From Pseudomonadota bacterium (GTDB lineage Bacteria > Pseudomonadota > Gammaproteobacteria > Ga0077536), in NCBI GenBank assembly GCA_016719885.1, contig JADJYF010000001.1, positions 414,150 through 478,149 of the forward strand: a DNA stretch of 64,000 nt. Direction: 5' to 3'. The notes beneath the pieces were generated by a model, which saw only the letters and a program-made list of their open reading frames with translations, was not told the DNA's origin and searched no databases. Positions 42,907-61,689 of the stretch are shown piece by piece (position 1 is the stretch's first letter; every line of letters begins with the position of its first letter). Both the position numbers and the translations under genes were made by a program.

Positions 42907-42923
42907 GTTCGTCCGTCTCCGTG

Positions 42924-45196: not shown

Positions 45197-46267
45197 TCAG
45201 CCGCGCTTGCCCTCGACGTATTCCCAGGCGCGTTCGGCGAAACGCTCGACGATGTCGGTGGTGGACGGTGCGTCGGAACTCGCCGCCGTGCCGTCCTGCA
45301 CGCGCTTGATGATGCCCTGGTAAATAGCCGCCAGGCGCCACGCGGTGTAGGCGTTGTAGAACTCCATGTGCTTTATTTCCTTGCGGCCGGTGAGCTCGCA
45401 ATAGCGCGCGATGTATTGCGCCTGCGTGGGGATGCCCATCGCTTCGAGATCCATGCCGTCGAGACTGGATACGCGCTCATCGACCGCCGGGATCACCCAC
45501 GGCGCCATGTGGTAGCTGAAATCGCCGAGCGGATCGCCGAGCGTGGCGAGCTCCCAGTCCAGCACCGCGATCACGCGCGGCTCGGTGGGATGCAGGATCA
45601 TGTTGTCCATGCGGTAGTCGCCGTGGATCACGCACACCTCGTCGGACGGCGGAATGTTGTTGGGCAGCCATTCCATGAGCTTGTCCATGAGCGGGATCTT
45701 GGTGGTCTCGGACGACTTGTAGCCCTTGCTCCACACGTGGATCTGGCGCGCGATGTAATCGTTGGGCTTGCCGAAGCCTTCGAGGCCGATTTTCTTGTAA
45801 TCGAGCTTCTGCAAATCGGCCAAGGTCACCAGCATCGCGTCGTAGATGGCGGCGCGCTCGGCCGGCGTCGGGCCCGGCAGGTGCAAGTCCCACAGGATGC
45901 GACCGTCGACCATCTCCATGATGTAGAACATGGTGCCGACCACGCTCGTGTCTTCACACAGCGCATAGGCGCGCGGCACCGGAAAGCCGGCGCGGTAGAG
46001 CGCATCGATGACGCGGAATTCGCGATCGACCTGGTGCGCCGACGGCAGCAGGTTGCCCGGCGGCTTGCGACGCAGGACGTAGCGCTGTTTGGGCGTGACG
46101 AGCTGGTAGGTGGGGTTGGATTGTCCGCCCTTGAATTCGCGGACCGTCAGCGGTCCTTCGTAGCCTTCCACCTCGGCTTCCATGAACGCGGCCAGCTTGT
46201 CGATGGGGAAGGCGAGGTGCGCCTGCACCTCCTTGGTTCCGGAAAATTTCTCCTGTCGGGTACTCAT
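45197..46267 (-). CDS. Phosphotransferase (APH/choline-kinase-like) family protein
   Basis: Kinase-like Brenner motif HGDYRMDNMI and DWE; an ACAD-associated APH-like family. Confidence 0.8.
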   Translation of the reverse strand: MSTRQEKFSGTKEVQAHLAFPIDKLAAFMEAEVEGYEGPLTVREFKGGQSNPTYQLVTPKQRYVLRRKPPGNLLPSAHQVDREFRVIDALYRAGFPVPRAYALCEDTSVVGTMFYIMEMVDGRILWDLHLPGPTPAERAAIYDAMLVTLADLQKLDYKKIGLEGFGKPNDYIARQIHVWSKGYKSSETTKIPLMDKLMEWLPNNIPPSDEVCVIHGDYRMDNMILHPTEPRVIAVLDWELATLGDPLGDFSYHMAPWVIPAVDERVSSLDGMDLEAMGIPTQAQYIARYCELTGRKEIKHMEFYNAYTAWRLAAIYQGIIKRVQDGTAASSDAPSTTDIVERFAERAWEYVEGKRG

Positions 46268-46278
46268 GTCGCTCTCTC

Positions 46279-47502
46279 TCAGGTCGCCGACGGGCCGGCG
46301 ACGATTCCTTGGTCATGCAGGCGGCCGATCGCGGCGCTGTCGAGGCCGAGAACGTCCGCCAGGATTTCATCGGTGTGCTGGCCGACACGCGCGGCGGGGC
46401 GCGGCGGCTGACGTTCCATCTTCGAGAAGTACATCGGCGTGCCGCACACCGGGTAGGTGCCGATGCCGGGTTGTTCGATGTTGGAGAAGATCGGATTGTC
46501 CGGCGAACAGTCCGGGTCGTTCTCGACCAGTTCGCGCACGGTCTGGTACTTGTCCCAGCAGATGCCGCATTCTTCGAAGACCTTGGCGAGCTGCGCGAAG
46601 GGCTGCGTGGCGAACCACGGTTCGAGCAGCGCGCACAATTCGCGACGCGCGCTGAAGCGATCGCCCTCGTTGGCGAAATCGAGACCCATGCGCGCGGCCA
46701 GCGCGGCCACTTCGTTGCCGAGCCCGGTGGCTTTCAACAGGCCTTCCCACTGCTTGGCGCTGACCGCGATGATCATCACGCGCTGGCCGTCGCTGGACAC
46801 GAAGTCGCGGCCGAAGGCGCCATAGAGGTAATTGCCGTTGCGCCCGCGGGTTTCGTGGTTGACGTGGAGCTCGCCGATGAAGCCGAGATTGCCGACCGCC
46901 GCCAGGGCGACGTCGGCCAGCGCCAGCTTGACCTGCTGGCCTTCGCCGGTCAGACGACGATGACGCTCGGCGGCCAACAGGTTAATGGCGGCGAGATAGG
47001 CGGTGGCAATGTCCCACGCCGGCAGCACGTGGTTGACCGGACGCGGGTCTTCCTCGGGGCCGGTCAGGTAGGGGAAGCCGACCTTGGCGTTGACGGTGTA
47101 GTCGAGCGCGCTCGAACCGTGGCGGTCACCGACGATTTCGTGCTGGATGAGATCGGGGCGACGCGCGCTCAAGGCCTTGTAATCGAGCCAGCCGCGCGCC
47201 GGCAGGTTGGTCGAGAAGATGCCGCCGTTCTCGCCCGGCGCGCAGATGAGCTCGGTGACCAGTTCACGGCCGGCCGGCGCGCGGATGTCGACCGCGATCG
47301 AGCGCTTGCCCTTGTTCATTTCCGCCCAGTAGATGCTGGTGTCGTCCTTGGTGACCGGCCAGCGGTGATAGTCGATACCGCCGCCCAGCTGATCGAAGCG
47401 GATGACGTCGGCGCCGAGCTGCGCGAGGGTCATGCCGCACATCGGCGCGGCGATGAAGGCCGAGCCCTCGACGATACGCATGCCTTTCAGGATTGCCTGC
47501 AT
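46279..47502 (-). CDS. Family III CoA-transferase (CaiB/BaiF)
   Basis: N-terminal LKGMRIVEGSAFIAAPMCGMTLAQLGADVIRF and a catalytic Asp region. Confidence 0.85.
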   Translation of the reverse strand: MQAILKGMRIVEGSAFIAAPMCGMTLAQLGADVIRFDQLGGGIDYHRWPVTKDDTSIYWAEMNKGKRSIAVDIRAPAGRELVTELICAPGENGGIFSTNLPARGWLDYKALSARRPDLIQHEIVGDRHGSSALDYTVNAKVGFPYLTGPEEDPRPVNHVLPAWDIATAYLAAINLLAAERHRRLTGEGQQVKLALADVALAAVGNLGFIGELHVNHETRGRNGNYLYGAFGRDFVSSDGQRVMIIAVSAKQWEGLLKATGLGNEVAALAARMGLDFANEGDRFSARRELCALLEPWFATQPFAQLAKVFEECGICWDKYQTVRELVENDPDCSPDNPIFSNIEQPGIGTYPVCGTPMYFSKMERQPPRPAARVGQHTDEILADVLGLDSAAIGRLHDQGIVAGPSAT

Positions 47503-47511
47503 GGGAACTCC

Positions 47512-48372
47512 TCAGGGCGCGATGCGCGCACTGCCGTTGTTAAGCACCACCACCTTGCGCTCCAGCACCGAGGTGCGGAAATAGGCGATGCCGTCCTCGT
47601 TCCAGATCTCGGTGCGCAGCGTCTCGCCCGGCAGCACCGGGGATGAGAAACGCACGTTCAAGGTTTTCATGCGTCGCGCGTCGTAGTCGCAGCAGCTCTT
47701 GAGGATGGCGTGCATGGCCACGCCCAAGGTGCAGCGGCCGTGCAGGATGGGCCGTTCGAAGCCGGCGCCGGTCGCGACCGCGGGGTCGGCATGCAAGGGA
47801 TTCATGTCGCCGCACAGGCGGTAGATCAAGGCCTGGTTGAAGTTGGTCGCGAGATCGCACACCTGGTCGGGCGCGCGCTCGGGCGGCGCCGGCGGCGCGG
47901 GACGCGCCTGGCTCTTGCCGCCGAAGCCGCCGTCGGCGCGCGCCAGGGTATTCGAGCGCACCGTCGCATACAGGGTTTTGCCGTCAGCGCTGCGCAGTTC
48001 TTTCTTCAAGTACACGAAGCAGCCTTTGTCGGCGCCCCGGTCGACCACGTCTTCGATGATGGTTTCGCCCGTCACCGTGCCGGACGACGGCAAAGGCTCA
48101 TGGATTTCCAATGCCTCTTCGGCATGCAGCACCTGCTGCCAGTTGAACCCGTACTTGGGGTCACGCATCCAGAAACCGGGATAGGCGATGACCAGTGCGA
48201 GGGTCGGCAGCGTGCGCAATTCGGGCTCTTCGTAGACATACGGCAGTTGCTTGGGGTCGACCGCGTCGGCGCCGACACCCACCGCCAGCGCATAGAGGAT
48301 GACGTCCTTGATGCCGTAGGTCTCGGTCTGCTTGTTGATGACCGTGCCGATCAGTTCTGCGTGGTTCTTCAT
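47512..48372 (-). CDS. MaoC-like double-hotdog (R)-specific enoyl-CoA hydratase (Hsd4B-like)
   Basis: Two hotdog halves; C-terminal MaoC motif ...YRLCGDMNPLHADPAVATGAGFERPILHGRCTLG. Confidence 0.8.
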   Translation of the reverse strand: MKNHAELIGTVINKQTETYGIKDVILYALAVGVGADAVDPKQLPYVYEEPELRTLPTLALVIAYPGFWMRDPKYGFNWQQVLHAEEALEIHEPLPSSGTVTGETIIEDVVDRGADKGCFVYLKKELRSADGKTLYATVRSNTLARADGGFGGKSQARPAPPAPPERAPDQVCDLATNFNQALIYRLCGDMNPLHADPAVATGAGFERPILHGRCTLGVAMHAILKSCCDYDARRMKTLNVRFSSPVLPGETLRTEIWNEDGIAYFRTSVLERKVVVLNNGSARIAP

Positions 48373-48408
48373 CGGGCCTCCGAATTCACTTCAATGCTTG
48401 AATTCTTA

Positions 48409-48497
48409 TTGTGGGTCAGACTTCAGTCTGACATTTGCATCAGCGGCATGATGCCTTAACGAGGCTCCCCCAAGTCAGACCGAAGTCTGACCCACAG
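48409..48497. repeat. Nested-palindrome intergenic repeat element, family B
   Basis: ttgtgggtcagacttcagtctgac ... gtcagaccgaagtctgacccacagg with a 43-bp loop. Confidence 0.8.
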
Positions 48498-48501
48498 GAG
48501 A

Positions 48502-50187
48502 TCATTCGCCTTTCAATATCAGTTCCCGTGCCACCACCTTCAGCGCCAGCGTCTCTTCCGCGCCTTCGAAAATCGACAGCACCCGCGCGTCGACGAAGTA
48601 ACGGCTGACGGCGGTTTCTTCCGAGTAGCCCATGCCGCCGTGGATCTGCATCGCTTCGCGGGTGATGGATTCCGCCGCGCGGCAGGCGTAGAGCTTGACG
48701 AGGCTCGCTTCCATGTGACCGCGGCCCTGGTCCATCAGTCGCGCCACGTCGTAGGTCATTTCCTGGCAGGCGCGCAGGTTGGCGGCCATCGACACCAGCT
48801 TGGCGCGGGTCAGTTGGTAGTCGGCCAGGGGCTGCCCGAACACGCGGCGATCCTTGGCGTAGCGGATGGCGGATTCGAAGGCGGCGCGCATCACGCCGCA
48901 GGCACGCGCGGCGGTTTGCAGGCGCCCGCCGGCGAAGCCGGCCATGGTGTGGTAGAAACCGCGGTTGAGCCCGGCCTTGCCGCCGATGATGTTGGCTTCC
49001 GGTACGAACACGTTGTCGAAGAACAATGTGTAGGAATGCATGCCGCGATAGCCGATGGTCGGGATGGCCTTGCCGCTCAGCACGCCGCCGCTGGGCTGAC
49101 GGAATTCAAAGGCCTTGTCGTCGGTCTGCGGTTTTTCCAACAGGAACAGGCTCAGGCCGCGGTGGCCGGCGGCCGGGTCGGCGTCGGTGCGCGCCAGCAC
49201 CATCAGCAGGCCGGCCTTGCCGGCGAAGGTGCACCAGGTCTTGGCGCCGTTCAGCAGGAAGCCGCCGGCGGTCGGCGTGGCGCGCAGCCGCACCGCAGCG
49301 ACGTCGGAGCCGCAGTCGGGCTCGGTGACGGCGATGGCCACGATGGGATTGCCGGCGGCGATGCCCGGCAGCCATTGCTGCTTCTGCGCTTCGTCGCCGC
49401 CCGCCATGATGGCGCGCGACAGGATCTCGGGGCGCGTCAGCGGACTGCCGGCGGCGGCCAGCGAGGCGCGGGACAACTCCTCGGTCACCACGCACATCGC
49501 GAGGTTGTCGTGGCCGGAGGCCGGCGCGGTGCCGCCGTAAGCTTCGGGGATGGACAGCGCGAAGCAGCCCATTTCCACCAGCGCGGCGAGGATGTCTTCA
49601 GGAATATTCAGGTCGTCGCGATGGATGTGCTCGGCCTGCGGCGCGACGATGTCGTCGGCGATGCGCGCGAAGCTCGAGGCGATGATCTGCTTGTCCTCAT
49701 CGAGCAGCGAGCGGCCATGGCTGCCGTGCTCGAGGATCTGCGCGGCCGTCGCCTCGAGAAAGGCCGGCTGCAGATGGGTGGCGTTGAAGCGTTCGGCTTC
49801 GGCGGTCTCGAATGCTTCGTGCACCTCGCGGCCGTTCAAGCCCGTGAGGTGACGAATCTTTTCGAAACGCGCGCGCAGCTTGAGCAGGATCTCGGCCACG
49901 AAGGCGCCCGCCAGGTGGCTCTCGAAGGCCGCGCCGTGCTCATCGCCGTCGCGCTCGGTCATGCACGAGCGCGCGTAGTCGATGATGGCGTTGGCGGCAT
50001 GGAGTTCGGCATTGATCATGGCGAACTCGTAACCTTGCACCTGGCAGTGATCCAAGGCCTGGTTGACGTCGGCCGCGCTCGTCACCTCGGCATGCGTATG
50101 ACGCAGCGCGCGGCGGAACAAGGCGTCGATGCCCTTCAGTACCTCGGGGATGGCGGCCAGGGTCGAAGCTTGGGCGGATTGGGTCAT
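48502..50187 (-). CDS. Acyl-CoA dehydrogenase, long form (561 aa)
   Basis: ACAD N/M/C domains plus a C-terminal extension; AVTEPDCGSDVAAV, WCTFA. Confidence 0.85.
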   Translation of the reverse strand: MTQSAQASTLAAIPEVLKGIDALFRRALRHTHAEVTSAADVNQALDHCQVQGYEFAMINAELHAANAIIDYARSCMTERDGDEHGAAFESHLAGAFVAEILLKLRARFEKIRHLTGLNGREVHEAFETAEAERFNATHLQPAFLEATAAQILEHGSHGRSLLDEDKQIIASSFARIADDIVAPQAEHIHRDDLNIPEDILAALVEMGCFALSIPEAYGGTAPASGHDNLAMCVVTEELSRASLAAAGSPLTRPEILSRAIMAGGDEAQKQQWLPGIAAGNPIVAIAVTEPDCGSDVAAVRLRATPTAGGFLLNGAKTWCTFAGKAGLLMVLARTDADPAAGHRGLSLFLLEKPQTDDKAFEFRQPSGGVLSGKAIPTIGYRGMHSYTLFFDNVFVPEANIIGGKAGLNRGFYHTMAGFAGGRLQTAARACGVMRAAFESAIRYAKDRRVFGQPLADYQLTRAKLVSMAANLRACQEMTYDVARLMDQGRGHMEASLVKLYACRAAESITREAMQIHGGMGYSEETAVSRYFVDARVLSIFEGAEETLALKVVARELILKGE

Positions 50188-50206
50188 GACCTGACTCCTG
50201 CGATGC

Positions 50207-51118
50207 TTACACCGGGTCCCAGGGCCACACGTCCTGCGAACGGTCGAGCGCGTAGAGATCCGACTTGAAGGCCGGCATGCAATGCTCGGCGATGGTCTCG
50301 GCGGTCCAGCCGTCGCCGCGATGCATGGAACGCTTCGGGCGGTGTTGGCTCATCAGGAAGATTTCGTTGTTGCGCACCGCGAAGATCTGCCCGGTGACCT
50401 CCTTGGCCGCGTCAGACAGCAGGTAGACCGCCATCGGCGCGATCTTGGCCGGCGTCATTTCCTTCAGCCGCTCGACGCGCTGGCGCTGCACTTCGTCGGT
50501 GATCGGAATGGTGCCGATCATGCGTGTCCAGGCGAACGGCGCGATGCAGTTCGAGCGCACGTTGTTGCGACCGAGATCCAGCGCGATGCTCTTCGACAGC
50601 GCGGCGATGCCGAGCTTGGCGGCGGCGTAGTTGGCCTGGCCGAAATTGCCGATGAGGCCCGAGGTCGAGGTCATGTGCACGTAGGCGCCGGTGTTGCGTT
50701 CACGGAAATGATCGGCGGCCGCGCGGCTGACGTAGAACGAGCCGTTGAGATGCACGTCGATGACGGCATGCCATTCATCGAGGCTCATCTTGTGGAACAT
50801 GCGGTCGCGCAGGATGCCGGCGTTGTTGATGACGCCGTCGAGCTGGCCGAAATGCTTGATGGCGTCGGCCACCATCGCCTGCGCATCCTCGTAGCGCGCG
50901 ACGCTGCCGAAATTGGCGACTGCCTGGCCGCCCATGGCCTCGATTTCACGCACCACTTCCTTGGCGGGCGTGCCTTCGATGTCGGCGCCGTCGGTGCTGG
51001 CGCCGAGATCGTTCACCACCACCTTGGCGCCGGCGGCCGCCATCGCCAAAGAAAAGTCGCGGCCGATGCCGCGTCCACCGCCGGTAACCAGTACCACTTT
51101 GCCGTCGAGCATACCCAT
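50207..51118 (-). CDS. SDR oxidoreductase of the multifunctional-enzyme-type-2 N-terminal (3R-hydroxyacyl-CoA dehydrogenase, Hsd4A-like) type
   Basis: VVLVTGGGRGIGR, NNAGILRD, catalytic YAAAK; 303 aa with a C-terminal extension. Confidence 0.8.
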   Translation of the reverse strand: MGMLDGKVVLVTGGGRGIGRDFSLAMAAAGAKVVVNDLGASTDGADIEGTPAKEVVREIEAMGGQAVANFGSVARYEDAQAMVADAIKHFGQLDGVINNAGILRDRMFHKMSLDEWHAVIDVHLNGSFYVSRAAADHFRERNTGAYVHMTSTSGLIGNFGQANYAAAKLGIAALSKSIALDLGRNNVRSNCIAPFAWTRMIGTIPITDEVQRQRVERLKEMTPAKIAPMAVYLLSDAAKEVTGQIFAVRNNEIFLMSQHRPKRSMHRGDGWTAETIAEHCMPAFKSDLYALDRSQDVWPWDPV

Positions 51119-51236: not shown

Positions 51237-52136
51237 TCAATCGTCGTCGTCGGGCGCGCGCGCGTCGCCCGCGTTGTCCAGCAATTCTTCGGCGAGTTGC
51301 TTCAACTCGTCGAGGATGTCCTCCAGCTCACGCGCCATGATCCAGACAATCAGTTCGTCGGCGCCAGCCGCCGCCACCTGGTCGCGGCCTTCGGCGCTGC
51401 GGAACAGGCCTTCCAGCGCGAAGGGCGCGACGTGGATGCTGCTACGGTCGCGGCCCGCGGCCGCGCAGGCCGCTTCAAGTTCGCGGCAACCGGCCGCGAA
51501 TTCGTCCAGTGAAGACATCACCGGGATCCAGCCCTCGCCCCAAGCGACCACGCGCTTGAACACGCGCGCCGAACCGGAGCTGCCGAACATGATCGGCGGC
51601 CCGGCCTGGGTTTCAGGTTTGGGGTAGGAACGGATGGGTGGGAAGTTGTAATAACGTCCACTGTGGGACGGGGCGTCTTCGCGCCACAGCTTGCGCATCA
51701 CTTCCACGCACTCGCGGGTCTGGGTCCAGCGGTGGTCGAAATCGACGCCCAGGATCTCCGACTCCTCGCGATTCCAGCCGGCGCCGATGCCGAACTGCAC
51801 GCGACCATGGCTGTAGTGATCGACCGACGCCACCTGCTTGGCGAGGATCAAAGGATTGTGTTCCGGAACGAGACAGATGCCGCTGCCGAGCTTGATGCTG
51901 CGCGTGGTGGTGGCGGCGCGCGCCAGCGCAACCCACGGATCCGGCATCTGCCACAGGTAGTCGGGCGGTGGGTTGCCGGGGTCGCCGACGTAATCCGATG
52001 CAAACGACATCGGCATGATGGCGTGCTCCGGCACCCAGTAGGAATGGAAGCCGAGATCCTCGGCGGCCTTGGCCACGATGGCGGGGTCGCCACGCCTATC
52101 GGGCTGGATCTGGAACACCCCGATTTTGAGCGACAC
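51237..52136 (-). CDS. LLM-class oxidoreductase, probably F420-dependent (GTG start)
   Basis: About 300-aa luciferase-like TIM barrel (VSLKIGVFQIQPDRR..., GSGICLVPEHNPLILAKQ, FGIGAGWNREE). It is convergent with and adjacent to the F420 biosynthesis operon. The upstream 340 codons of ORF 51237..53153 are rejected. Confidence 0.65.
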   Translation of the reverse strand: MSLKIGVFQIQPDRRGDPAIVAKAAEDLGFHSYWVPEHAIMPMSFASDYVGDPGNPPPDYLWQMPDPWVALARAATTTRSIKLGSGICLVPEHNPLILAKQVASVDHYSHGRVQFGIGAGWNREESEILGVDFDHRWTQTRECVEVMRKLWREDAPSHSGRYYNFPPIRSYPKPETQAGPPIMFGSSGSARVFKRVVAWGEGWIPVMSSLDEFAAGCRELEAACAAAGRDRSSIHVAPFALEGLFRSAEGRDQVAAAGADELIVWIMARELEDILDELKQLAEELLDNAGDARAPDDDD

Positions 52137-52388
52137 GAGCGACCTCCGCTGCGAACGAAAACGGCCTGCGACGGCGCCACGGGCAAGGCGCATGCATGGG
52201 CCCGGAAAGGGCCGAATAGTACTCGATCCTTTCGCCGGTGACATTGCCGAACCGAGGGTGTCGGCGGTGTGCGCGGCGCTTGCGCCGGCGCGGCCCTTCG
52301 CGGTTACATTAGCCCGCCCGGCGAGGCCGGGTGCTTGCGCCGAATGCATCGACTCGCCGGGCGCGAGACCACCAGCCGCGGATTGTTT

Positions 52389-53150
52389 ATGCCCCGTATA
52401 TCCCTCACCACGCTGTCGCGTATTCCGCTCGTCAAGTCGGGCGACAATCTCGTCGCGATCATTCTCGGCGCCGCCGCCGACGACGGTGTCAGTTTCAGCG
52501 ACGGCGACATCGTGGTGCTGGCGCAGAAGATCGTGTCCAAGGCGGAAGGCCGACTGGTGCCGGTGGCCAGCGTCACGCCGGGTGACGAAGCCATCGAACT
52601 CGCCGCCGCCACCGACAAGGATCCGCGCATGGCGCAATTGATCCTCGACGAAGCGGCCTACGTCATGCGCCGCAAGCCCGGCGTCATCATCGTGCGCCAC
52701 AAGCTCGGGCATGTCGGCGCCAATGCCGGCATCGACCAGTCGAACGTGGAACACGAGGGCGGTGAACAGGCCTTGCTGCTGCCGGTCGATCCCGATGCCT
52801 CGGCGCAGCGTCTGCACCAGGCGCTGAGCGCGGCGGCCGGGTGCCATGTCGGCGTCATCATCTGCGACAGCATGAACCGGCCGTGGCGGCTCGGCACCAT
52901 CGGTGGCGCCATCGGCTGCGCCGGCATCGAAGTACTGGATGACCGCCGCGGCCAGCATGACATGTTCGGCCGCGAGCTCAAGGTCACCATGATCAACCGC
53001 GCCGACTCCATCGCGGCGATGGCCACCCTGCTCATGGGCGAATCGACGGAGCGTACGCCGGTGGCGGTGGTGCATGGCTTCGCGGTCGATGCGCACCACG
53101 GACGCGCCGCCGACATCATCCGTCCGCCGGCCGACGACCTGTTCAACTGA
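52389..53150 (+). CDS. cofE: Coenzyme F420-0:L-glutamate ligase
   Basis: LVKSGDNLVAIIL...GDIVVLAQKIVSKAEGR...RHKLGHVGANAGIDQSN...GVIICDSMNRPWRLGTIGGAIGCAG: the CofE fold pattern. Confidence 0.75.
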   Translation: MPRISLTTLSRIPLVKSGDNLVAIILGAAADDGVSFSDGDIVVLAQKIVSKAEGRLVPVASVTPGDEAIELAAATDKDPRMAQLILDEAAYVMRRKPGVIIVRHKLGHVGANAGIDQSNVEHEGGEQALLLPVDPDASAQRLHQALSAAAGCHVGVIICDSMNRPWRLGTIGGAIGCAGIEVLDDRRGQHDMFGRELKVTMINRADSIAAMATLLMGESTERTPVAVVHGFAVDAHHGRAADIIRPPADDLFN

Positions 53151-53151
53151 C

Positions 53152-54093
53152 ATGGCAAGCTATGTCGCACTGAGCGGTGGCGTCGGTGGCGCCAAGCTGG
53201 CGCTGGGCCTCACCCACCTGCTCGAGCCGCACGCCCTGACCTTGGTAGTGAACACCGGCGACGACTTCGAGCACCTCGGCCTGCACATCGCGCCGGATCT
53301 CGATACCCTGATGTACACGCTGTCCGGCCTCAGTAATACCGAGACCGGCTGGGGGCGGGCGGGGGAATCGTGGCAATGCCTGGACGCGCTGGCCGAACTC
53401 GGCGGCGAAACCTGGTTCCGGCTCGGCGATCGCGACCTGTCGGTGCACCTGCAACGCAGCCTGCGCCTGCGCGCGGGCGCCAGCTTGTCGACGGTCACCG
53501 CCGAACTCTACGCGGCACTCGGCATCCGTCATCGCGCGCTGCCGATGAGCGACCAGCCGGTGCGCACCCTGGTGCATTGCGACGCCGGTGTGCTGGCCTT
53601 CCAGCATTACTTCGTGCGTGAACGCTGCGCACCGCGGGTGAGCGGATTCAGCTTCGACGGCGCGGCGACCGCCAGCGCGGCGCCCGGCGTACTCGAGGCG
53701 CTGCGCGCAAGCGATCTCGCCGGCGTCATCATCTGCCCGTCGAATCCATTCTTGAGCATCGACCCGATACTCGCGGTGCCGGGTGTGCGTGAGGCCTTGC
53801 GCGCTTGCCGCGCGCCGGTGGTGGCGGTGTCACCGATAGTGGCGGGGCTCGCCATCAAGGGGCCGACCGCCAAGATCATGGAGGAACTCGCGCTGCCGCA
53901 GACCGCGGCGGCGGTGGCGGCCCATTACGGCTCGCTCATCGATGGTTTCATACTCGACGAAAGCGACCGCGCGCTGGCCGCGCAAATCGCCTCGACTACG
54001 CTGCGTGTGAGCACCGCGCAGAGCGTCATGGTGACGCTGGACGATAGGATCAATCTGGCGCACACTGCCCTGGACTTTCTCCGTACATTCTGA
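53152..54093 (+). CDS. cofD: 2-phospho-L-lactate (LPPG):Fo transferase
   Basis: [20 protein letters not shown]...[19 protein letters not shown]...[14 protein letters not shown]: the CofD/UPF0052 family pattern. The start ATG is 1 nt after the cofE stop. Confidence 0.8.
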
Positions 54094-54100
54094 AGCCGGC

Positions 54101-54781
54101 ATGTGGGTCGTCGTTCCCGTCAAACGTTTCTCGAATGCGAAGACGCGACTGGCGCCGCTGTTGTCGGCGGCCGAGCGCGAATCCCTGGCGCAGGCCATGT
54201 TGAACGACGTGCTGCGCGCGATTGCCGAGAGTCGGCGCGTGGCGGGCGTGCTGGTGGTGTCGCGCGAAGTGCGCGCCCGTTACTGCGTCGAGCGCATCGG
54301 CGGCTTGTTTCTCGAAGACACGGCGGACGATCTTTCCAGCGCCATCGAATTGGCGGGCGAATGGCTCGCGACCCACGGTCAACGCGGCATGCTGATGATC
54401 CCGGGCGACGTGCCGCTGGTCAGCGGCCGTGAGATCGACGAACTGCTGCTCACCCATCGCGGTGCGCCGGCCGTGACCCTGGCGCCCGACCGTGAACACG
54501 ATGGCACCAACGCATTGGCGGTCAGTCCCGCCGATGCCATCCATTTCGCCTTCGGCAAGGGCAGCTTCGCCAAGCATCGCCAGGCGGCGCTCGACGTCGG
54601 CATCCAGGCACAGGTCGCCTTGCTGCCGGGCCTCGCGCTCGATGTCGACAACCCCATGGATCTGCAGACGCTGTTGACCTATGACAGTGAGACCGAGACC
54701 CTGGCTTATCTATGTGACAGCGGCATCGCGCGCCGCGTCATGCCTCATCACACCAGTGCGCGCGACTTGACCGGCTGGTAG
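54101..54781 (+). CDS. cofC: 2-phospho-L-lactate guanylyltransferase
   Basis: MWVVVPVKRFSNAKTRLAPLLSAAERESLAQAMLNDVL...GDVPLV: a MobA-like NTP-transferase of the CofC type. Confidence 0.75.
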   Translation: MWVVVPVKRFSNAKTRLAPLLSAAERESLAQAMLNDVLRAIAESRRVAGVLVVSREVRARYCVERIGGLFLEDTADDLSSAIELAGEWLATHGQRGMLMIPGDVPLVSGREIDELLLTHRGAPAVTLAPDREHDGTNALAVSPADAIHFAFGKGSFAKHRQAALDVGIQAQVALLPGLALDVDNPMDLQTLLTYDSETETLAYLCDSGIARRVMPHHTSARDLTGW

Positions 54782-54857
54782 AGAAACATGCTGAGCGCAG
54801 CAGTTTTTTTACTCGCCTCGTAAACGACGTCGCCGCCGCTTCACGGTTTTGTAAGTC

Positions 54858-57317
54858 ATGAATTCCATCGCTTCGATACTGGCAGCCGCGGAAGCGGGGC
54901 AGACTCCGGATGATGCGCAGGCCCTGCGGCTGGCCGAATGCGCCGAACTCGGGCCCTTGATGGCGAGCGCCGCACGGCTGCGCGACCAGGGCTTCGGCAA
55001 TGGCGTGACCTATTCGCGCAAGATTTTCATTCCGCTTACGCAGCTGTGTCGCGACGTGTGTCATTACTGCACCTTCGCCCAGGCGCCGAAGCGCGTCACC
55101 GAGCCCTACATGAGCATCGAGGCGGTGGTGGCCTTGGCGCGCGAAGGTCAGCGCCTCGGTTGCAAGGAGGCGCTGTTCACGCTCGGCGAACGGCCGGAGT
55201 TGCGCTACAAGACCGCGCGCGACGCGCTGGCGCGCATGGGCTTCGGCTCGACACTGGAATATCTGCGCGCGGCGGCCGAGGCGGTGTTCAGCGAGACCGG
55301 CCTGTTGCCGCACATGAACCCCGGCACCATGACGCTCGCCGAATGCGAAATGCTGCGCGAGGTGTCGCCGAGCATGGGCATCATGCTGGAGTCGGCGTCG
55401 GAGCGTCTGTGCGCCAAGGGCATGCCGCACCACGGGTCGCCCGACAAGCGGCCGGCGGTGCGCCTCGAAACCCTGCGCAACGCCGGTCGCGCGCGTATCC
55501 CCTTTACCAGCGGCATCCTCATCGGCATCGGCGAAACCCGCCGCGAGCGCATCGAAGCGCTGCTGGCGCTGCGCGCCGTGCACGCCGAGTTCGGTCACAT
55601 CCAGGAAATCATCGTGCAGAACTTCCGGGCCAAGCCGGATACGAAAATGCACGACGCGCCGGAGCCCGACCTCGACGACATGCTGTGGACGCTGGCGGTG
55701 GCGCGCATCGTGTTCGGCGCGCACATGAGCATCCAGGCGCCGCCGAACCTGAGCCCGGGCGCGCTGCCCGAATTGGTTAAGGCCGGCATCAACGACTGGG
55801 GCGGTGTGTCGCCGCTGACGCCGGATCATGTGAACCCGGAAGCGCCGTGGCCGCATCTCGACAAGCTTGCCGCCGACACCGCCGCCGCCGGCAAACATCT
55901 CCACGAACGGCTGACCATCTACCCGCAGTACCTGCGCGGTCCGGCGTCATGGGTGGCGCAGCGTTTCGAGACCCCGTTGCTGCAGATGATCGATGCGGAT
56001 GGCTATCCGCGCACCGACGACTGGTCGCCCGGCGAGGACATGACGCCGCCGCCGGCGGTGGTGGAGGCGATCTCGCGGCGTCCGGCCCGCGTGTCGAGCG
56101 ACGTGGCCGCCATCCTCGCGCGCTGCGAGGCCGGCAAGCTCATCGACGAAAACGACATCGTCAGGTTGTTCCGCGCGCGCGGCGATGATTTCAGCGCCGT
56201 GTGCCAGGCCGCCGATCGCATTCGTCAGCGTGAGAACGGCGACGTGGTGAGCTTCGTCGTCAATCGCAACATCAATTACACCAATGTCTGCTATTTCAAG
56301 TGCCAGTTCTGCGCCTTCTCCAAGGGCAAACTGTCGGAGAACCTGCGCGGCTCGCCCTACGATCTCGATCACGACGAGATCAAGCGCCGCGTGCTGGAGG
56401 CTTGGGAGCGTGGCGCGACCGAGGTGTGCATGCAGGGCGGCATACACCCGCAGTACACCGGCGACACCTACATCGCCATTCTCGACGCAGTGAAGGACGC
56501 CGTGCCGGACATGCACATCCACGCGTTCTCGCCGCTGGAAGTGTGGCAGGGCGCGGCGACCCTGAAGCTGCCGCTGCGCGATTACCTTACGCGCCTCAAG
56601 GACGCCGGTCTCGGCACCTTGCCGGGCACCGCCGGCGAGATCCTCGACGACGAAGTGCGCGCCATCATTTGCCCGGACAAGATCAACACCGCGCAGTGGT
56701 TCGAAGTGATGCGCGCCGCGCACGAGGTCGGATTTCGTACCACCTCGACCATCATGTATGGACACGTCGACAGGCTCGAGCATTGGGCGCGTCACCTGTT
56801 GCGGGTGCGCGACCTGCAGCGCGAGACCGGTGGCTTCACCGAATTCGTGCCGCTGCCCTTCGTGCACATGGAAGCGCCGCTGTATCTCAAGGGCCGCGCG
56901 CGCAAGGGCCCGACCTTCCGCGAATGCGTGCTGATGCATGCGGTGGCGCGACTCGCCCTGCATCCGCATATCCGCAACGTGCAGACTTCGTGGGTCAAAA
57001 TGGGGCACGCGGGCGTGCGCGCCTGCCTCAATGCCGGTGCCAATGATCTGGGCGGCACGCTCATGAACGAGAGCATCACGCGCGCGGCCGGCGCCAGCCA
57101 TGGCCAGGAGACCTCGCCGGAAGAAATGATGGCGATGATCACGGCCTGCGAGCGCACGCCGCGACAGCGCTCGACGGCCTACGAGGCTGTGTCCGACGAG
57201 CGCATCGCCGCCGGGCGCGACGCCGCCGAACTCGCCGAAATCGTCAACACCCCGGCGCGCAAGTACGAACGCGCCGAGCGCCGCGAGCTGCTGCGTTCGC
57301 GTGTCGAGGTCGGCTGA
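54858..57317 (+). CDS. fbiC: Bifunctional Fo synthase (7,8-didemethyl-8-hydroxy-5-deazariboflavin synthase, fused CofG-CofH)
   Basis: 819 aa with two radical-SAM Cx3Cx2C clusters (CRDVCHYCTF in the N-terminal half; CYFKCQFCAF in the C-terminal half), exactly as in fused FbiC. Confidence 0.88.
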   Translation: MNSIASILAAAEAGQTPDDAQALRLAECAELGPLMASAARLRDQGFGNGVTYSRKIFIPLTQLCRDVCHYCTFAQAPKRVTEPYMSIEAVVALAREGQRLGCKEALFTLGERPELRYKTARDALARMGFGSTLEYLRAAAEAVFSETGLLPHMNPGTMTLAECEMLREVSPSMGIMLESASERLCAKGMPHHGSPDKRPAVRLETLRNAGRARIPFTSGILIGIGETRRERIEALLALRAVHAEFGHIQEIIVQNFRAKPDTKMHDAPEPDLDDMLWTLAVARIVFGAHMSIQAPPNLSPGALPELVKAGINDWGGVSPLTPDHVNPEAPWPHLDKLAADTAAAGKHLHERLTIYPQYLRGPASWVAQRFETPLLQMIDADGYPRTDDWSPGEDMTPPPAVVEAISRRPARVSSDVAAILARCEAGKLIDENDIVRLFRARGDDFSAVCQAADRIRQRENGDVVSFVVNRNINYTNVCYFKCQFCAFSKGKLSENLRGSPYDLDHDEIKRRVLEAWERGATEVCMQGGIHPQYTGDTYIAILDAVKDAVPDMHIHAFSPLEVWQGAATLKLPLRDYLTRLKDAGLGTLPGTAGEILDDEVRAIICPDKINTAQWFEVMRAAHEVGFRTTSTIMYGHVDRLEHWARHLLRVRDLQRETGGFTEFVPLPFVHMEAPLYLKGRARKGPTFRECVLMHAVARLALHPHIRNVQTSWVKMGHAGVRACLNAGANDLGGTLMNESITRAAGASHGQETSPEEMMAMITACERTPRQRSTAYEAVSDERIAAGRDAAELAEIVNTPARKYERAERRELLRSRVEVG

Positions 57318-57394
57318 GCGGCCGCCATCATTGGCCCGGCCGTGAGTGCCGGGCCACTCATAATCATGCCTGATTGCATCCTCGGGGGAGGGGA

Positions 57395-58621
57395 ATGATG
57401 GCTGCCTTACCCAACCACATACTCAATGGCTTCCGCGTGCTGGACATGACCCATGTGCTCGCCGGCCCGACCGCGTCGCGGCTCATGGCGGAGATGGGCG
57501 CCGAGGTCATCAAGGTCGAGTTTCCGCCACTCGGCGACGTGGCGCGCATGTTGCCGGCGCACAAGAACGGGCGCAGCGCCTATTACACCCAGCAGAATCG
57601 CGGCAAGTTCAGCATATGCCTGAACGCCAAGACGTCGGAAGGCCGTGCGATCATCACGGACCTGCTGAAGACCGCCGATGTGTTCATCGAGAATTTCGCC
57701 CCGGGCGTGATTGGCCGCATGGGCTTTTCCTGGGACGAGGTGCACAAGATCAACCCGCGCCTGGTGATGTGCTCGATCTCGGCTTTCGGTCAGAGTGGGC
57801 CGCTGTCGTCACTGCCGGGCTTTGACTACATCGCCCAGGCCTACAGCGGCGTGATGGGCATGATCGGCGACCCCGATGGCGCGCCGTCATTTCCGATGGT
57901 GAGCATGGGCGACATCTCGACCGGTGTGCACGCCGCCGCCGCCATCGGCTTCGCGCTGCTGCACCGCGAGCGGGGCGGCGAGGGCCAGTATCTCGACATC
58001 TCGCTGCTCGACGCCTACACCGGCTACCACGAGCTCAATATCCACCTGTACAGCCTCACCAACGGCGAGGTCGAGCCGACCCGCGCCGGCAGCCAGCATT
58101 TCGCGGTCTGCCCGCTGGGCCTGTTCAAGACCCGCGAAGGCTATGTCTGCATCATCGCGCTGCAAAACCAGTGGGCACCGCTGTGCCGCGCCATCGGACG
58201 CCCGGAGTTGGCCGACGACCCACGCTACAACGACAACGCCAAGCGCGTGGCCCGTGCCAGCGACGTGATCGGCATCCTGCAGGCCTGGTGTGACGCGCAG
58301 CCCGATGACGCCGCCATCCTCGCCGCCCTCGAAGCCGAGCGTGTGCCCTGCGCGCCGGTGCTGCGTATCGGCCAGGTGGTGAGCCATCCGCATATGCTGG
58401 AACGGGGCACGGTGCGCGTGGTGAAGGACCCCAAGCTCGGCGAGGTGCTGATGCCCGGCATGCCGCTGCGTTTTTCCGGTTTCGAGCACAACCAGCCGCT
58501 GGAGGCCGCTTTTCTCGGCCAGCACAACGAGGCGGTGCTGACCGGGATGCTCGGCTACGACGCCGCGCGCATCGAAGCGCTGCGCGCCGCCGGCGTGCTT
58601 CATTCGAATGCCGACACCTGA
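57395..58621 (+). CDS. Family III CoA-transferase (CaiB/BaiF)
   Basis: LNGFRVLDMTHVLAGPTASRLMAEMGAEVIKVE and the catalytic Asp region; RBS ggaggg upstream. Confidence 0.85.
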   Translation: MMAALPNHILNGFRVLDMTHVLAGPTASRLMAEMGAEVIKVEFPPLGDVARMLPAHKNGRSAYYTQQNRGKFSICLNAKTSEGRAIITDLLKTADVFIENFAPGVIGRMGFSWDEVHKINPRLVMCSISAFGQSGPLSSLPGFDYIAQAYSGVMGMIGDPDGAPSFPMVSMGDISTGVHAAAAIGFALLHRERGGEGQYLDISLLDAYTGYHELNIHLYSLTNGEVEPTRAGSQHFAVCPLGLFKTREGYVCIIALQNQWAPLCRAIGRPELADDPRYNDNAKRVARASDVIGILQAWCDAQPDDAAILAALEAERVPCAPVLRIGQVVSHPHMLERGTVRVVKDPKLGEVLMPGMPLRFSGFEHNQPLEAAFLGQHNEAVLTGMLGYDAARIEALRAAGVLHSNADT

Positions 58622-58675: not shown

Positions 58676-60352
58676 TTGAAAAAACGATTTAAATTACAGT
58701 ATGAAAAGCTCGGGGTTTGGGCTGTTGGGGGACGAGTGCTAAGAGCATTGCTATTGGCGTGCGCCGTCTCGGCGTGTGGGGGGCAATCCGTCTGGGCGGA
58801 AGAGGCTCCACCTTTGAAAATCGTCGTCAAGACCTACAAGGTCGAGGGCGACAATCCCATTGGCGCTGCCGCCAGTGAGGCGCTGGCGCCGTTCGTCGGC
58901 GAGTTCGATGGCCTCGAACCGCTGTACGCCGCCAAGGATGCCATCAACGCCGCGCTCGCGAGCGGCGGATACCGCTTCTACCGCGCCGTGCTGCCGCCGC
59001 AGGACATCGTCGACGGCGTGGTCACCATCAAGATACTCGCGCTGCCGATCGGCAAGGTGGTGGTGGAAGGCAACAAGCGCGTGTCGGCCGCGGCGGTGGA
59101 GCGCAGCGTGCGCGCCCTGAAGACCGGCGAAGTGCCGAATACCGCCGAAGTGTCGCGTTCGCTGGCGGTTGTCAACGAACATCCCTCGAAGAAAGTGCAG
59201 GTCAATTTCCGCGAGAGCGAGGAGACGCCTGACACCCTCGACGCCGTGCTCAAGGTCGCGGAAGAAAAGCCGTGGTCGGTGTTCGCGCAGATCAACAACA
59301 TCGGCAGTGCCGGGGACGGCGCCTCCGATGTCGCCGCTGGTGGTACCGCTGGCACCGGCCGCACCCGTCTCACCATGGGTGGCCAGTACGACAACCTCAC
59401 GCGTCACGACGACGTGCTGCAAGGCTCGGTCACGACCTCGCCCGAGAACGCCGAAAACGTCCTGCAATACGCCAGTTCCTATCAACTGCCCATCTATCGT
59501 TTGAACGGTTGGCTGACCGGCTTCTACGTCCATTCGGAAGTCGACGTCGACGGCGTGCAGGGCGGCATCTTCGATATCCAGGGCGCCGGCACCTTCTACG
59601 GCCTCAGCTTCAAACACCAGTTGGTGAACATCGGTCGCTACAAGCACAGCTATACGCTGGGCGTGCAGGACCGCCTGTTCGACACCGCCATCTTCACTTC
59701 AGCCAACGGCCTGCGCCTGACGGCGCTCAGCACCAAGGTGCGCAGCCGACCATTCTCGGGACGCTACGACGGCTCCTACTCCTGGTCCAGCACCAGCGTC
59801 GATTTCTACTGGGATGTCAGCCACAACATCGAGGCCGGTAATCACAACAACGCCACGGACTACGCGCTGGTGCGGGCGCCGGCCACGCCGGATTTCACCG
59901 TCGGCCATTTCGGCGCGCTGGTCACGCAACGCCTGCCGCGCGGCTTTGCCGCGCTGGGCCGCATGACCGCCCAGTTGACCGGCCAGGCACTCATCCCCGG
60001 CGAGCAGTTGGGCGCGGGCGGCGTGCACTCGGTGCGTGGCTTCGAAGAACGCACCATCGCCGGCGACAAGGGCGTGATCCTCAATTTCGAATTGTGGTCG
60101 CCGCCGGTCAAACGCCTGCTCGACGCTCGTTTCCTCGGCTTTATCGATGTCGGTCACAAAGCGCTGATCGATCCGGTGGTGGGGCAGCGCCAGAACGATA
60201 CGATTTCCAGTATCGGTCTGGGCGCGAGGTGGCAATGGCGCAAACAGCTGTCGCTGGCTATCGACTATGGACTGCCGCTCGCGAGCGCGGACGGCGAGGC
60301 ATCGGATCGGGGCAATTCGAAATGGCATCTAGACCTTACCTACCGTTATTGA
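58676..60352 (+). CDS. Two-partner-secretion outer-membrane transporter (TpsB; ShlB/FhaC/HecB family)
   Basis: Signal peptide, POTRA region and a 16-strand Omp85-type barrel ending ...KWHLDLTYRY (C-terminal aromatic). Confidence 0.85.
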   Translation: MKKRFKLQYEKLGVWAVGGRVLRALLLACAVSACGGQSVWAEEAPPLKIVVKTYKVEGDNPIGAAASEALAPFVGEFDGLEPLYAAKDAINAALASGGYRFYRAVLPPQDIVDGVVTIKILALPIGKVVVEGNKRVSAAAVERSVRALKTGEVPNTAEVSRSLAVVNEHPSKKVQVNFRESEETPDTLDAVLKVAEEKPWSVFAQINNIGSAGDGASDVAAGGTAGTGRTRLTMGGQYDNLTRHDDVLQGSVTTSPENAENVLQYASSYQLPIYRLNGWLTGFYVHSEVDVDGVQGGIFDIQGAGTFYGLSFKHQLVNIGRYKHSYTLGVQDRLFDTAIFTSANGLRLTALSTKVRSRPFSGRYDGSYSWSSTSVDFYWDVSHNIEAGNHNNATDYALVRAPATPDFTVGHFGALVTQRLPRGFAALGRMTAQLTGQALIPGEQLGAGGVHSVRGFEERTIAGDKGVILNFELWSPPVKRLLDARFLGFIDVGHKALIDPVVGQRQNDTISSIGLGARWQWRKQLSLAIDYGLPLASADGEASDRGNSKWHLDLTYRY

Positions 60353-61689
60353 GCCGCCCGGCGCGGGGCCTGGTCCTGTCGGCGGCGCTGGCGCTGCTGG
60401 CGACGCCGCTGTGGGCGGCCAACAAGGCCGGCGACGTGATGCTCGCCCACGGCGTGGTCAGCGCCCACGTGGCGGGCGGCGCGCCGCACCTGTTGGGCCC
60501 GGGATCAGCGCTCAACGAGGGCGACGTGGTGACCACCGGGCCGCGCAGCGTGGCGCTGCTCAAATTGGCCGACGGCACCAAGATCACCCTGCGTCCCGAG
60601 TCGTCCTTCCAGATTGCGAAGTACGAGGTGGCGGAGAATCGCGAAGAGGGCCTCATGACCCTCTTCAAGGGCGGCCTGCGAGCGGTCACCGGCTTCATGA
60701 GCAAGCGCAATCCGAACGCCATGCGCCTGCGCACCTCGGTGGCAACCATCGGTATCCGCGGCACCGAATTCGACGCGCGCCTGTGCGGCAGCGACTGCAG
60801 CGAGGAAGCGCGGGCCCATTCGACGCCCGCCGGCCGTGCCGGGTTCGTGAAGGGCGATGCCCTGGTGCGCGCGCCAAGCAGCCACGCGCGGCCCTTGAAA
60901 TCCGGCGCGCCGGTCTACAACGGTGACACCGTCATCACCAATGCCGATGCCTTCGCGGTGCTGGTGTTCGCCGACAAGAGCCGCGTGACGCTGATGCCCA
61001 ACACCGAGTTCCGCGTCGAGCGCGTGGAATTCAAGATGGCCGAACCGCAGCGCAGCGAGAGCATCTTCAACCTGCTGCGCGGCGGCTTGCGCGCGGTCAG
61101 TGGCCTGGTCGGCCACAAGGGCCGCGGTACCTACCAGATGCGTACCGCCGTGGCCACGATCGGTATCCGCGGCACCGACTGGACGGCCATGTGCGTGGGG
61201 CCCTGCCAAGCCACGGACCCGAACGCGGCGCCGGGCGGCAATGGCTTCTATTCGCAGGTCAACGAGGGCGCCATCGACGTCAACGGTGGCGAGGTGCAGG
61301 CCGGTGAGACCATATTCGTGGGCAGCACCGGCATGCTGCCGCAGAGCGTGCCGCAACTGCCCGTGCCGATGCCGCCCGATCTGCCGCCGCCAGGTTCGAT
61401 CGAATTCCAGGAACCGCCGCCGGCGCCGACGTCGACCGACCCCGAGAGCGGCCTGTACGTCAGCTGCTATTCCGGTATCTGCGCGGTGCAGACCGAAGAG
61501 AACGAAATCCAGCTCGGCCAAGGCGAGGCCAGCCACGTCGGGAACCAAGGCGGCCCCGCGCAGCAATTGACCGAGGTGCCGCCGTTCCAGGCGGAAGACC
61601 CGATTTTCCATGCTGTCGAGGTCGGCGGACAGCTCGAGCAGTTGAATGAGACGCTGAACAACGGAGGTCTCGAATGCACGGTTCACTGA
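60322..61689 (+). CDS. Secreted tandem FecR-domain protein with Pro-rich linker and Cys-containing C-terminal domain
   Basis: Signal peptide MASRPYLPLLSRPARGLVLSAALALLATPLWA. Two FecR-like repeats (TLFKGGLRAVTGF...TIGIRGTEFD and NLLRGGLRAVSGL...TIGIRGTDW). Linker PVPMPPDLPPPGSIEFQEPPPAPTS. The start is uncertain and overlaps the tpsB 3' end. Confidence 0.65.
   Translation: MASRPYLPLLSRPARGLVLSAALALLATPLWAANKAGDVMLAHGVVSAHVAGGAPHLLGPGSALNEGDVVTTGPRSVALLKLADGTKITLRPESSFQIAKYEVAENREEGLMTLFKGGLRAVTGFMSKRNPNAMRLRTSVATIGIRGTEFDARLCGSDCSEEARAHSTPAGRAGFVKGDALVRAPSSHARPLKSGAPVYNGDTVITNADAFAVLVFADKSRVTLMPNTEFRVERVEFKMAEPQRSESIFNLLRGGLRAVSGLVGHKGRGTYQMRTAVATIGIRGTDWTAMCVGPCQATDPNAAPGGNGFYSQVNEGAIDVNGGEVQAGETIFVGSTGMLPQSVPQLPVPMPPDLPPPGSIEFQEPPPAPTSTDPESGLYVSCYSGICAVQTEENEIQLGQGEASHVGNQGGPAQQLTEVPPFQAEDPIFHAVEVGGQLEQLNETLNNGGLECTVH

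Follow-up and report, generated by a model that had tools for sequence, protein, structure and literature searches.

A coenzyme F420 biosynthesis operon of the standard bacterial type next to acyl-CoA genes in an uncultured member of the Pseudomonadota

Production of coenzyme F420 has been confirmed in Alpha- and Betaproteobacteria, and genes for its biosynthesis were found in diverse other bacteria, as summarized in a 2021 review (PMC8498797). According to this review, F420 production was shown for Paracoccus denitrificans and Oligotropha carboxidovorans, the combination of a fused Fo synthase (FbiC) with a CofE that consists of the ligase domain only was already described for Proteobacteria, and classical F420 is the product of Alphaproteobacteria whose CofE is likewise ligase-only. 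In the non-actinobacterial bacteria no F420-dependent enzyme has been studied, and the question why Proteobacteria possess F420 is unanswered (PMC8498797). Here, we describe a cofE-cofD-cofC-fbiC operon and a neighbouring gene for a luciferase-like (LLM-class) oxidoreductase on a stretch of 64,000 nt, referred to as the window, from a Pseudomonadota bacterium (assembly GCA_016719885.1, contig JADJYF010000001.1, positions 414,150-478,149 of the forward strand). The host is an uncultured, high-GC member of the Pseudomonadota that probably belongs to the Gammaproteobacteria. We consider it very likely that this is a functional-looking F420 operon of the standard non-actinobacterial bacterial type, with classical lactyl-linked F420 as its product and the LLM as the likeliest local user. 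The genes concerned, of which the four biosynthetic ones are adjoining plus-strand open reading frames (ORFs), are the following:

52389..53150, plus strand: cofE, F420-0:gamma-glutamyl ligase, 253 amino acids
53152..54093, plus strand: cofD, phospholactate (LPPG/EPPG):Fo transferase, 313 amino acids
54101..54781, plus strand: cofC, guanylyltransferase, 226 amino acids, active site of the 2-phospho-L-lactate (2-PL)/phosphoenolpyruvate (PEP) type
54858..57317, plus strand: fbiC, fused CofG and CofH Fo synthase, 819 amino acids
51237..52136, minus strand: LLM-class oxidoreductase of the TIGR03619 (Rv2161c) family, 299 amino acids, predicted to be F420-dependent

Family membership was assigned by curated NCBIfam cut-offs (at equivalog level for the four biosynthetic proteins) and near end-to-end coverage of the model, with Pfam as a cross-check that was concordant for all four. 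CofE scores 259.7 bits with TIGR01916 (cut-off 180.65; model positions 3-243 of 244) and 249.3 bits with PF01996. The FbiB model PRK13294 is matched with 199 bits (cut-off 304) and over positions 13-242 of 449 only, hence this CofE does not carry the C-terminal nitroreductase domain of FbiB. CofD scores 284 bits with TIGR01819 (cut-off 257.45) and matches PF01933; a YvcK-type paralogue was rejected, as the corresponding model TIGR01826 yields 27.8 bits (cut-off 196). CofC reaches 164.4 bits with TIGR03552 (cut-off 105) and FbiC 1167.8 bits with the bifunctional CofGH model PRK09234 (cut-off 1018). Residues 51-370 of the latter protein correspond to positions 1-317 of 322 of the CofG model TIGR03550 and residues 429-778 to positions 1-345 of 345 of the CofH model TIGR03551, with one CxxxCxxC motif in each half (CRDVCHYC at residue 64 and CYFKCQFC at residue 478). 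The E-values of these profile matches range from 1e-48 to 0, which excludes chance. The computation thus establishes the identity of the genes, the completeness of their domains, the residues of the active site and the synteny, and an earlier sequence-only reading of this DNA was borne out in the four-gene cluster, all members of which exceed their NCBIfam cut-offs, in the ligase-only CofE, in the assignment of CofD to the LPPG:Fo transferases instead of YvcK and in the two full-length radical-SAM halves of FbiC. That the organism actually makes the cofactor, and which C3 precursor it uses in vivo, we infer.

The gaps of 1 nt (cofE/cofD), 7 nt (cofD/cofC) and 76 nt (cofC/fbiC) fit a single transcription unit. 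GenBank entries MBK8957245-MBK8957249 are the exact window proteins, already named as F420 genes (coenzyme F420-0:L-glutamate ligase, 2-phospho-L-lactate transferase, 2-phospho-L-lactate guanylyltransferase, CofH for the fused product of fbiC, and LLM class F420-dependent oxidoreductase); as the GenBank pipeline is independent, these identical names support the reading as an F420 operon. The locus is an ordinary new case of a well-known bacterial F420 biosynthesis system. GC content across the region is uniform (0.64-0.68) and the flanking synteny is kept in relatives, on which grounds a horizontally acquired island was rejected; the earlier description of the surroundings as a catabolic island does not hold.

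In the proposed pathway, FbiC with its CofG and CofH radical-SAM domains would produce the deazaflavin head group Fo. CofC would, together with GTP, activate a C3 acid phosphate, being 2-PL or PEP and not 3-phosphoglycerate (3-PG), CofD would move the C3 unit onto Fo to give F420-0 (or dehydro-F420-0) and the ligase-only CofE would add gamma-glutamates. The joint inputs tyrosine, 5-amino-6-ribitylaminouracil, GTP, C3 acid phosphate and glutamate would in this way yield F420-n, and the TIGR03619 LLM, encoded divergently at the head of an acyl-CoA (beta-oxidation-like) gene cluster, would use the cofactor.

The window was screened for F420 reductases with tblastn and, for essentially all ORFs whose GC content at the third codon position (GC3) is coding-like, with Pfam/NCBIfam. 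No Fno, Fgd, FDOR or FbiE was found in the 64 kb, and tblastn detected no Fno-like sequence anywhere in it. In the relatives with gene tables examined, the ±10 kb around the operon likewise contained no gene for an FbiE/FbiB-type nitroreductase. The earlier designation of the operon as complete therefore holds for the four core steps and not for an F420-reducing enzyme or a dehydro-F420 reductase, neither of which is in the window; F420 would presumably be reduced by an enzyme encoded outside it.

Which F420 variant can be expected depends on CofC. Activation of 3-PG hinges on Ser162 of the CofC of Mycetohabitans rhizoxinica (Mrhiz-CofC), equivalent to Gly163 in FbiD of Mycobacterium tuberculosis (Mtb), with a contribution of Met91 and Cys95, and 3-PG activation can be diagnosed by a Ser or Thr at position 162 (Hasan et al., PMC8764529). 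In the same study, 3-PG turnover was conferred on FbiD of Mycobacterium smegmatis (Msmeg-FbiD) only by T152H combined with G169S, T152H being the His145 position, and H145A/T left Mrhiz-CofC itself unaltered. Most CofCs favour 2-PL in vitro; 2-PL and PEP users are inseparable by sequence and only assays of cognate CofC/CofD pairs separate them (PMC8764529). An alignment of the window CofC with three homologues of solved structure (7P97, 6BWG and 2I5E) was used to map the residue numbering. By score, 7P97 ranks first (83.5 bits, ~36% identity), followed by Mtb FbiD (65.7 bits) and the Methanosarcina mazei CofC 2I5E (45.7 bits). All metal-binding and substrate-contact residues known from the structures of Mtb FbiD and MycB3-CofC are retained (K8, K14, R16, D103, T136, N137, S155, D181 and D183), among them the three Mg-binding Asp residues D103, D181 and D183. 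At the specificity positions, the protein has Gly152, Leu78, Ile82 and Asp134, as compared to Ser162, Met91, Cys95 and His145 in the 3-PG enzymes, and at all eight alignable PEP-contact positions (K17, L92, D116, T148, G163, S166, D188 and D190 in FbiD numbering) the protein is identical to Mtb FbiD. The diagnostic column of an alignment of 56 sequences shows Gly or Asp, and in one case Asn, for the 53 CofCs of related loci, and Ser or Thr for none of them.

These residues indicate a CofC of the 2-PL/PEP type and not of the 3-PG type, and given Gly152 and Leu78 at the specificity positions, classical lactyl-linked F420 is predicted and not 3PG-F420. The sequence-only reading had raised the latter, glyceryl-linked variant, as made by Mycetohabitans (Paraburkholderia) rhizoxinica. 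For a CofC that favours 3-PG speak its best solved match, the 3-PG enzyme 7P97 (83.5 bits compared to 65.7 for Mtb FbiD), and the combination of no dehydro-F420 reductase with no known 2-PL source, a metabolic background proposed to favour a switch to 3-PG (Hasan et al., PMC8764529). The replacement of the diagnostic Ser/Thr by Gly152, together with the changes Met91 to Leu78, Cys95 to Ile82 and His145 to Asp134, the score of 0/53 in related loci and the position of the Mycetohabitans clade as a separate early branch (PMC8764529) nevertheless make 3PG-F420 a highly improbable product. A PEP route via dehydro-F420-0, as in mycobacteria, deserves more weight, although we consider it doubtful; the enol would then be reduced by an unrecognised enzyme nearby or elsewhere, or dehydro-F420 would persist. 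It would agree with the complete match to Mtb FbiD over the eight alignable PEP contacts, with the fact that no 2-PL source is known in bacteria (PMC8498797) and with the shift of the CofC/CofD of Ca. Entotheonella towards PEP when assayed with the cognate partner (PMC8764529). On the other hand, no gene of the nitroreductase superfamily (FbiE or FbiB's C-terminal domain) lies in the window or within ±10 kb in the relatives examined, and the in vitro preference of most CofCs for 2-PL counts against this route, with sequence unable to split 2-PL from PEP users.

To compare the locus with its relatives, the window proteins were mapped onto each of 80 genomic loci around FbiC relatives, 59 of which have the order cofE-cofD-cofC-fbiC. 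The nearest FbiC relatives (72-91% identity) are found in metagenome-assembled genomes (MAGs) of Gammaproteobacteria; FbiC proteins from GTDB-Pseudomonadales lineages (Halieaceae, Porticoccaceae, Azotimanducaceae and Litorivivens) are 62-72% identical and those from MAGs of Holophagales, Chloroflexota and Alphaproteobacteria 64-68%. A gene for 228 amino acids that recurs just 5' of cofE in related loci encodes Fno (TIGR01915, 200.7 bits, cut-off 149.8) and precedes cofE by 9-161 bp in 51 of these 59 loci. The eight loci without fno are exactly the closest relatives of the window, L006-L012 and L040. Together with the window and three loci described below, these make up what we call the window's clade (the window and the 11 relatives L006-L012, L040, L086, L088 and L089). 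Two of the database records call for a remark. L006 (CAMCBY010000091.1), with 91% FbiC identity, was submitted under the label of a 'Klebsiella pneumoniae' MAG, which is implausible by gene content and GC, so this bin is probably mislabelled or contaminated. L001 (GCA_009612975.1, WBZP01051959.1) carries an identical CofC on a metagenome contig of 2.8 kb on which the upstream gene lies on the opposite strand and is not cofD, which reflects either a rearrangement or a short assembly that is chimeric.

The LLM gene had been described as convergent with cofE. In fact, its 5' end (52136) faces that of cofE (52389), so that the minus-strand LLM gene and cofE are divergent, arranged head-to-head with a spacer of 252 bp. 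Translation probably starts at 52136 with a GTG codon that has a GGAGG Shine-Dalgarno sequence in front of it; the resulting product of 299 amino acids is the same as that of MBK8957245 ('LLM class F420-dependent oxidoreductase'). A 638-codon minus-strand ORF at 51237..53153 in the mechanical ORF list is a high-GC read-through artefact. The LLM scores 225.7 bits with TIGR03619 (cut-off 166.9) and matches PF00296, compared to 71 bits for the best model of a flavin mononucleotide (FMN) type enzyme, SfnG. This family assignment agrees with the earlier proposal of an F420-class enzyme. Among solved structures, FMN and F420 enzymes are level at ~60 bits (best match 8cbb, 'alkanal monooxygenase alpha chain', 61.4 bits), and because of this tie a sequence search of solved structures cannot settle the LLM cofactor. 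In the literature, we found no characterised member of TIGR03619, and Mascotti 2018 offers no simple FMN/F420 motif by which LLMs could be checked. In a ranking of hidden Markov models, those of the Mer- and Rv1855c-like type come closer to the protein than those of Fgd-type dehydrogenases do. This hints at a reductase that consumes F420H2, in which case an enzyme that reduces F420 would have to be encoded elsewhere.

We regard this LLM as the most likely local user of F420, to which it would be expected to bind. Its adjacency to the operon could be coincidental, the LLM being an FMN-dependent enzyme of the acyl-CoA cluster and F420 serving enzymes elsewhere in the genome. In line with this are the FMN-type 8cbb as best PDB match at the level of the F420 enzymes, the family without characterised member found, and the position of the LLM gene: only the window, L006 and L086 have it between cofE and the gene for a short-chain dehydrogenase/reductase (SDR), the other clade members lacking it there. 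The margin of 225.7 to 71 bits in favour of TIGR03619, the protein length, which is short as in F420-type LLMs, and the presence of two to three further TIGR03619 paralogues within 10 kb downstream of the operon in L086, L088 and L087 (the same contig as L008) make this explanation rather improbable. As a side observation, which concerns L086 14143..16978, L087 14172..20160, L088 12331..21168 and L089 12080..12628, relatives have groups of three to six LLM genes within 10 kb 3' of the cof operon. Of these LLMs, ten were scanned: six are TIGR03619-like (one just under the cut-off), one scores best with TIGR03620, one is SfnG-like and two match no model. Two of these downstream LLM genes flank a conserved gene for a HAD hydrolase, and L089 has a gene for a formaldehyde-activating enzyme (Fae) 1 kb downstream.

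Directly 3' of fbiC lies a gene for a family-III CoA-transferase, and on the other side of the operon a minus-strand cluster (42103..51118) lies 3' of the LLM gene, which is its first gene. The cluster genes were named by Pfam and NCBIfam; the GC3-based gene filter had missed the PimD-like small subunit. With ACAD standing for acyl-CoA dehydrogenase, these neighbours are:

57395..58621, plus strand: family-III CoA-transferase, PF02515 383.9 bits, directly 3' of fbiC
50207..51118, minus strand: SDR
48502..50187, minus strand: ACAD
47512..48372, minus strand: MaoC hydratase
46279..47502, minus strand: Mci-like CoA-transferase
45197..46267, minus strand: APH-family kinase
43973..45139, minus strand: PimC-like ACAD (large subunit)
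about 42924..43979, minus strand: PimD-like ACAD (small subunit), overlapping the PimC-like gene
42103..42906, minus strand: enoyl-CoA hydratase

The CoA-transferase gene at 57395..58621 has a GGAGG Shine-Dalgarno sequence before its ATG, and its product reaches the cut-off of no NCBIfam model. Orthologues (64-91% identity) are located directly 3' of fbiC in L006-L011, L040, L086, L088 and L089. Among the eight fno-less relatives of the first set this holds for seven, the contig of the eighth ending at fbiC. More distant orthologues (64-72% identity) were sampled on four long contigs (L086-L089, one of which is the L008 contig), and all four show cofE-cofD-cofC-fbiC-CoA-transferase and no fno, with a gap between fbiC and the CoA-transferase gene of 14-25 bp in L086, L087 and L089 and of about 370 bp in L088. 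Upstream of cofE, these contigs carry divergent SDR/(ACAD)/MaoC/CoA-transferase/APH genes, and synteny of the acyl-CoA cluster beside cofE was seen in L007, L008, L010, L012, L040, L086, L088 and L089. Outside the window's clade, the CoA-transferase gene is not at the position after fbiC and fno is present upstream of cofE instead. Within the cof operon, the CoA-transferase gene thus behaves as a fifth gene and is specific to the clade; an fno-less operon with this CoA-transferase and the acyl-CoA cluster is the clade-wide architecture. We found no paper on such an arrangement in the literature.

Some further observations concern the genes of the cluster and of the window at large. The Mci-like CoA-transferase scores 581.7 bits with TIGR04253 (2-methylfumaryl-CoA isomerase, an intramolecular CoA-transferase); as this is under the cut-off of 725, it is a close but distinct relative of that isomerase, in a beta-oxidation-like cluster. 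The APH-family kinase gene directly upstream of the genes for the heteromeric PimC/PimD-like ACAD forms a kinase and ACAD module with them. An LvaA/LvaC- or ACAD10/11-type 4-hydroxyacyl-CoA module was considered for this pair and rejected, the ACAD being PimC-like with a PimD-like partner. Another ACAD gene, at ~29483..30640 on the minus strand, is apparently frameshifted: its N-terminal and middle domains are in a 553-codon ORF (29395..31056) and its C-terminal domain is in another frame (29483..29833), indicative of either a pseudogene or an assembly indel. Directly downstream of the operon region is a two-partner secretion (TPS) system, consisting of a ShlB/FhaC-type transporter (58676..60352, plus strand) and a TPS-domain exoprotein (61650..63998, plus strand) that runs past the window end, with an unannotated ORF of 531 codons (60094..61689) between them. 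A ShlB gene is likewise downstream in L006 (80% identity).

The sequence-only reading had named a second LLM in the window as a possible F420 user:

35983..37107, plus strand: second LLM, FMN-type (SfnG/NtaA/RutA-like) monooxygenase

Its best models are SfnG (231.1 bits), NtaA/DmoA (172.7 bits) and RutA (172 bits), all FMN-dependent two-component monooxygenases, and with 105.6 bits it misses the TIGR03619 cut-off of 166.9. We thus see no reason to tie it to F420, and that suggestion did not hold. The gene adjoins muconolactone-isomerase-like (34966..35361, minus strand) and AIG2-like (35362..35877, minus strand) genes, and a gene for an HsaB/RutF-like flavin reductase (18047..18586, minus strand) is located 17 kb away.

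The non-coding elements that flank the operon were inspected as well, in particular:

52137..52388, no strand assigned: LLM/cofE divergent intergenic region, 252 bp
57333..57355, plus strand: GC-rich hairpin GGCCCGGC-N7-GCCGGGCC with a perfect 8-bp stem and no T-run

The spacer between the LLM gene and cofE contains the 8-mer TACTCGAT (52220..52227), which recurs in five loci (window, L006, L007, L008 and L040) at a distance of 78-172 nt upstream of cofE. L086 has TACCCGAT in its place upstream of cofE, and L010, L012 and L088 all have the motifs GGTACT/GTTACTTCAGAA and GGGGAATATCG. These upstream motifs may be promoter or operator elements of a divergent control region. A scan of 50-59 kb showed no sigma-70 consensus, and its terminator-like matches were at shuffle expectation. 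Rfam at gathering thresholds gave no RNA family in the whole window, hence no known riboswitch before cofE. A cofactor-sensing RNA in the cofE leader was dropped as a candidate, since the leader is not widely conserved: an nhmmer search with its 256 nt against 85 loci, 80 of them the related genomic loci, matched the closest relative L006 only. A weak hairpin with a T-run between cofC and fbiC (54789..54812) is not significant. The hairpin GGCCCGGC-N7-GCCGGGCC starts 16 nt past the fbiC stop, was not called as a terminator in the scan and is missing in those relatives in which only 14-25 bp separate fbiC from the CoA-transferase gene. It may be an element between these two genes that stabilises or attenuates the transcript.

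Taken together, several points weigh against a classical F420 operon with the LLM as its local user. The organism is known only as a MAG, and no F420-reducing enzyme (Fno or Fgd) was found in the window, nor fno within ±10 kb of the operon in any of the 11 closest relatives. For 2-PL no bacterial source is known (PMC8498797), and the FbiE/FbiB-C nitroreductase that the PEP route needs was not found in the window. The assignment of the LLM to F420 comes from a computationally defined family, with the nearest solved structures evenly divided between FMN and F420. Moreover, two alphaproteobacteria tested, Paracoccus and Oligotropha, contained only trace amounts of F420 (PMC8498797). Those trace amounts, as well as the loss of the operon-linked fno in the window's clade, would suit an operon that is marginally active or mainly a source of Fo, with a niche role for F420 as proposed for these two organisms. 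We judge this unlikely: all genes are intact with tight junctions, and the operon is kept in relatives down to ~70% FbiC identity with several F420-class LLM genes near, a conservation that argues for purifying selection and real use.

Another reading, which we likewise consider unlikely, takes the architecture as a sign that F420 synthesis was rewired in the clade. The fno-linked operon would have turned into a catabolic supra-operon, with the CoA-transferase gene as a fifth gene, fno lost and a divergent control region shared with the LLM/SDR/ACAD/MaoC/CoA-transferase/kinase cluster. F420 would then be the dedicated hydride carrier of a specific acyl-CoA degradation pathway; TIGR03619 LLMs would use it, and a dehydrogenase of the pathway would reduce it instead of NADPH/Fno. 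More speculative still, the conserved kinase or CoA-transferase might supply the precursor of the C3 side chain. If true, the hydride-carrier role would give F420 a defined physiological function in Proteobacteria for the first time.

The gene calls themselves add nothing, as the five proteins were already correctly named in GenBank. What the analysis adds is sequence evidence for classical F420, not 3PG-F420, in this lineage, and another case of a ligase-only CofE without a dehydro-F420 reductase or a known 2-PL source. The clade-wide loss of fno and gain of the CoA-transferase gene, with acyl-CoA genes and TIGR03619 LLMs alongside, moreover provide a testable, if modest, lead on what Proteobacteria use F420 for.

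When compared to the described systems, the window shares the fused FbiC with the mycobacterial fbiC/fbiAB/fbiD system (PEP route), and its CofC active site matches that of Mtb FbiD. Its genes are, however, in one operon, CofE is without the C-terminal nitroreductase domain of FbiB and no Fgd is nearby. The 3PG-F420 pathway of M. rhizoxinica likewise has a proteobacterial host and a ligase-only CofE, and MycB3-CofC (7P97) is the best-scoring solved homologue of the window CofC; Ser162, Met91, Cys95 and His145 of the M. rhizoxinica enzyme are nevertheless replaced by Gly, Leu, Ile and Asp. With the archaeal cofC/cofD/cofE/cofG/cofH system (2-PL route), the window has the ligase-only CofE and likely the lactyl-linked chemistry in common, whereas CofG and CofH are fused in the window and, of the three homologues with solved structures, the M. 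mazei CofC 2I5E is farthest from the window protein (45.7 bits). The fno-cofE-cofD-cofC-fbiC operon in Pseudomonadales/Halieaceae, Holophagales and Alphaproteobacteria MAGs has the same gene order, a fused FbiC, a ligase-only CofE and no FbiE. FbiC of these fno-linked loci is 62-72% identical to that of the window, and F420-class LLM genes are often near. The difference lies in fno, located 9-161 bp 5' of cofE in all 51 loci outside the window's clade and lacking in the window and its 11 relatives, which instead have the family-III CoA-transferase gene after fbiC and the acyl-CoA cluster divergently upstream.

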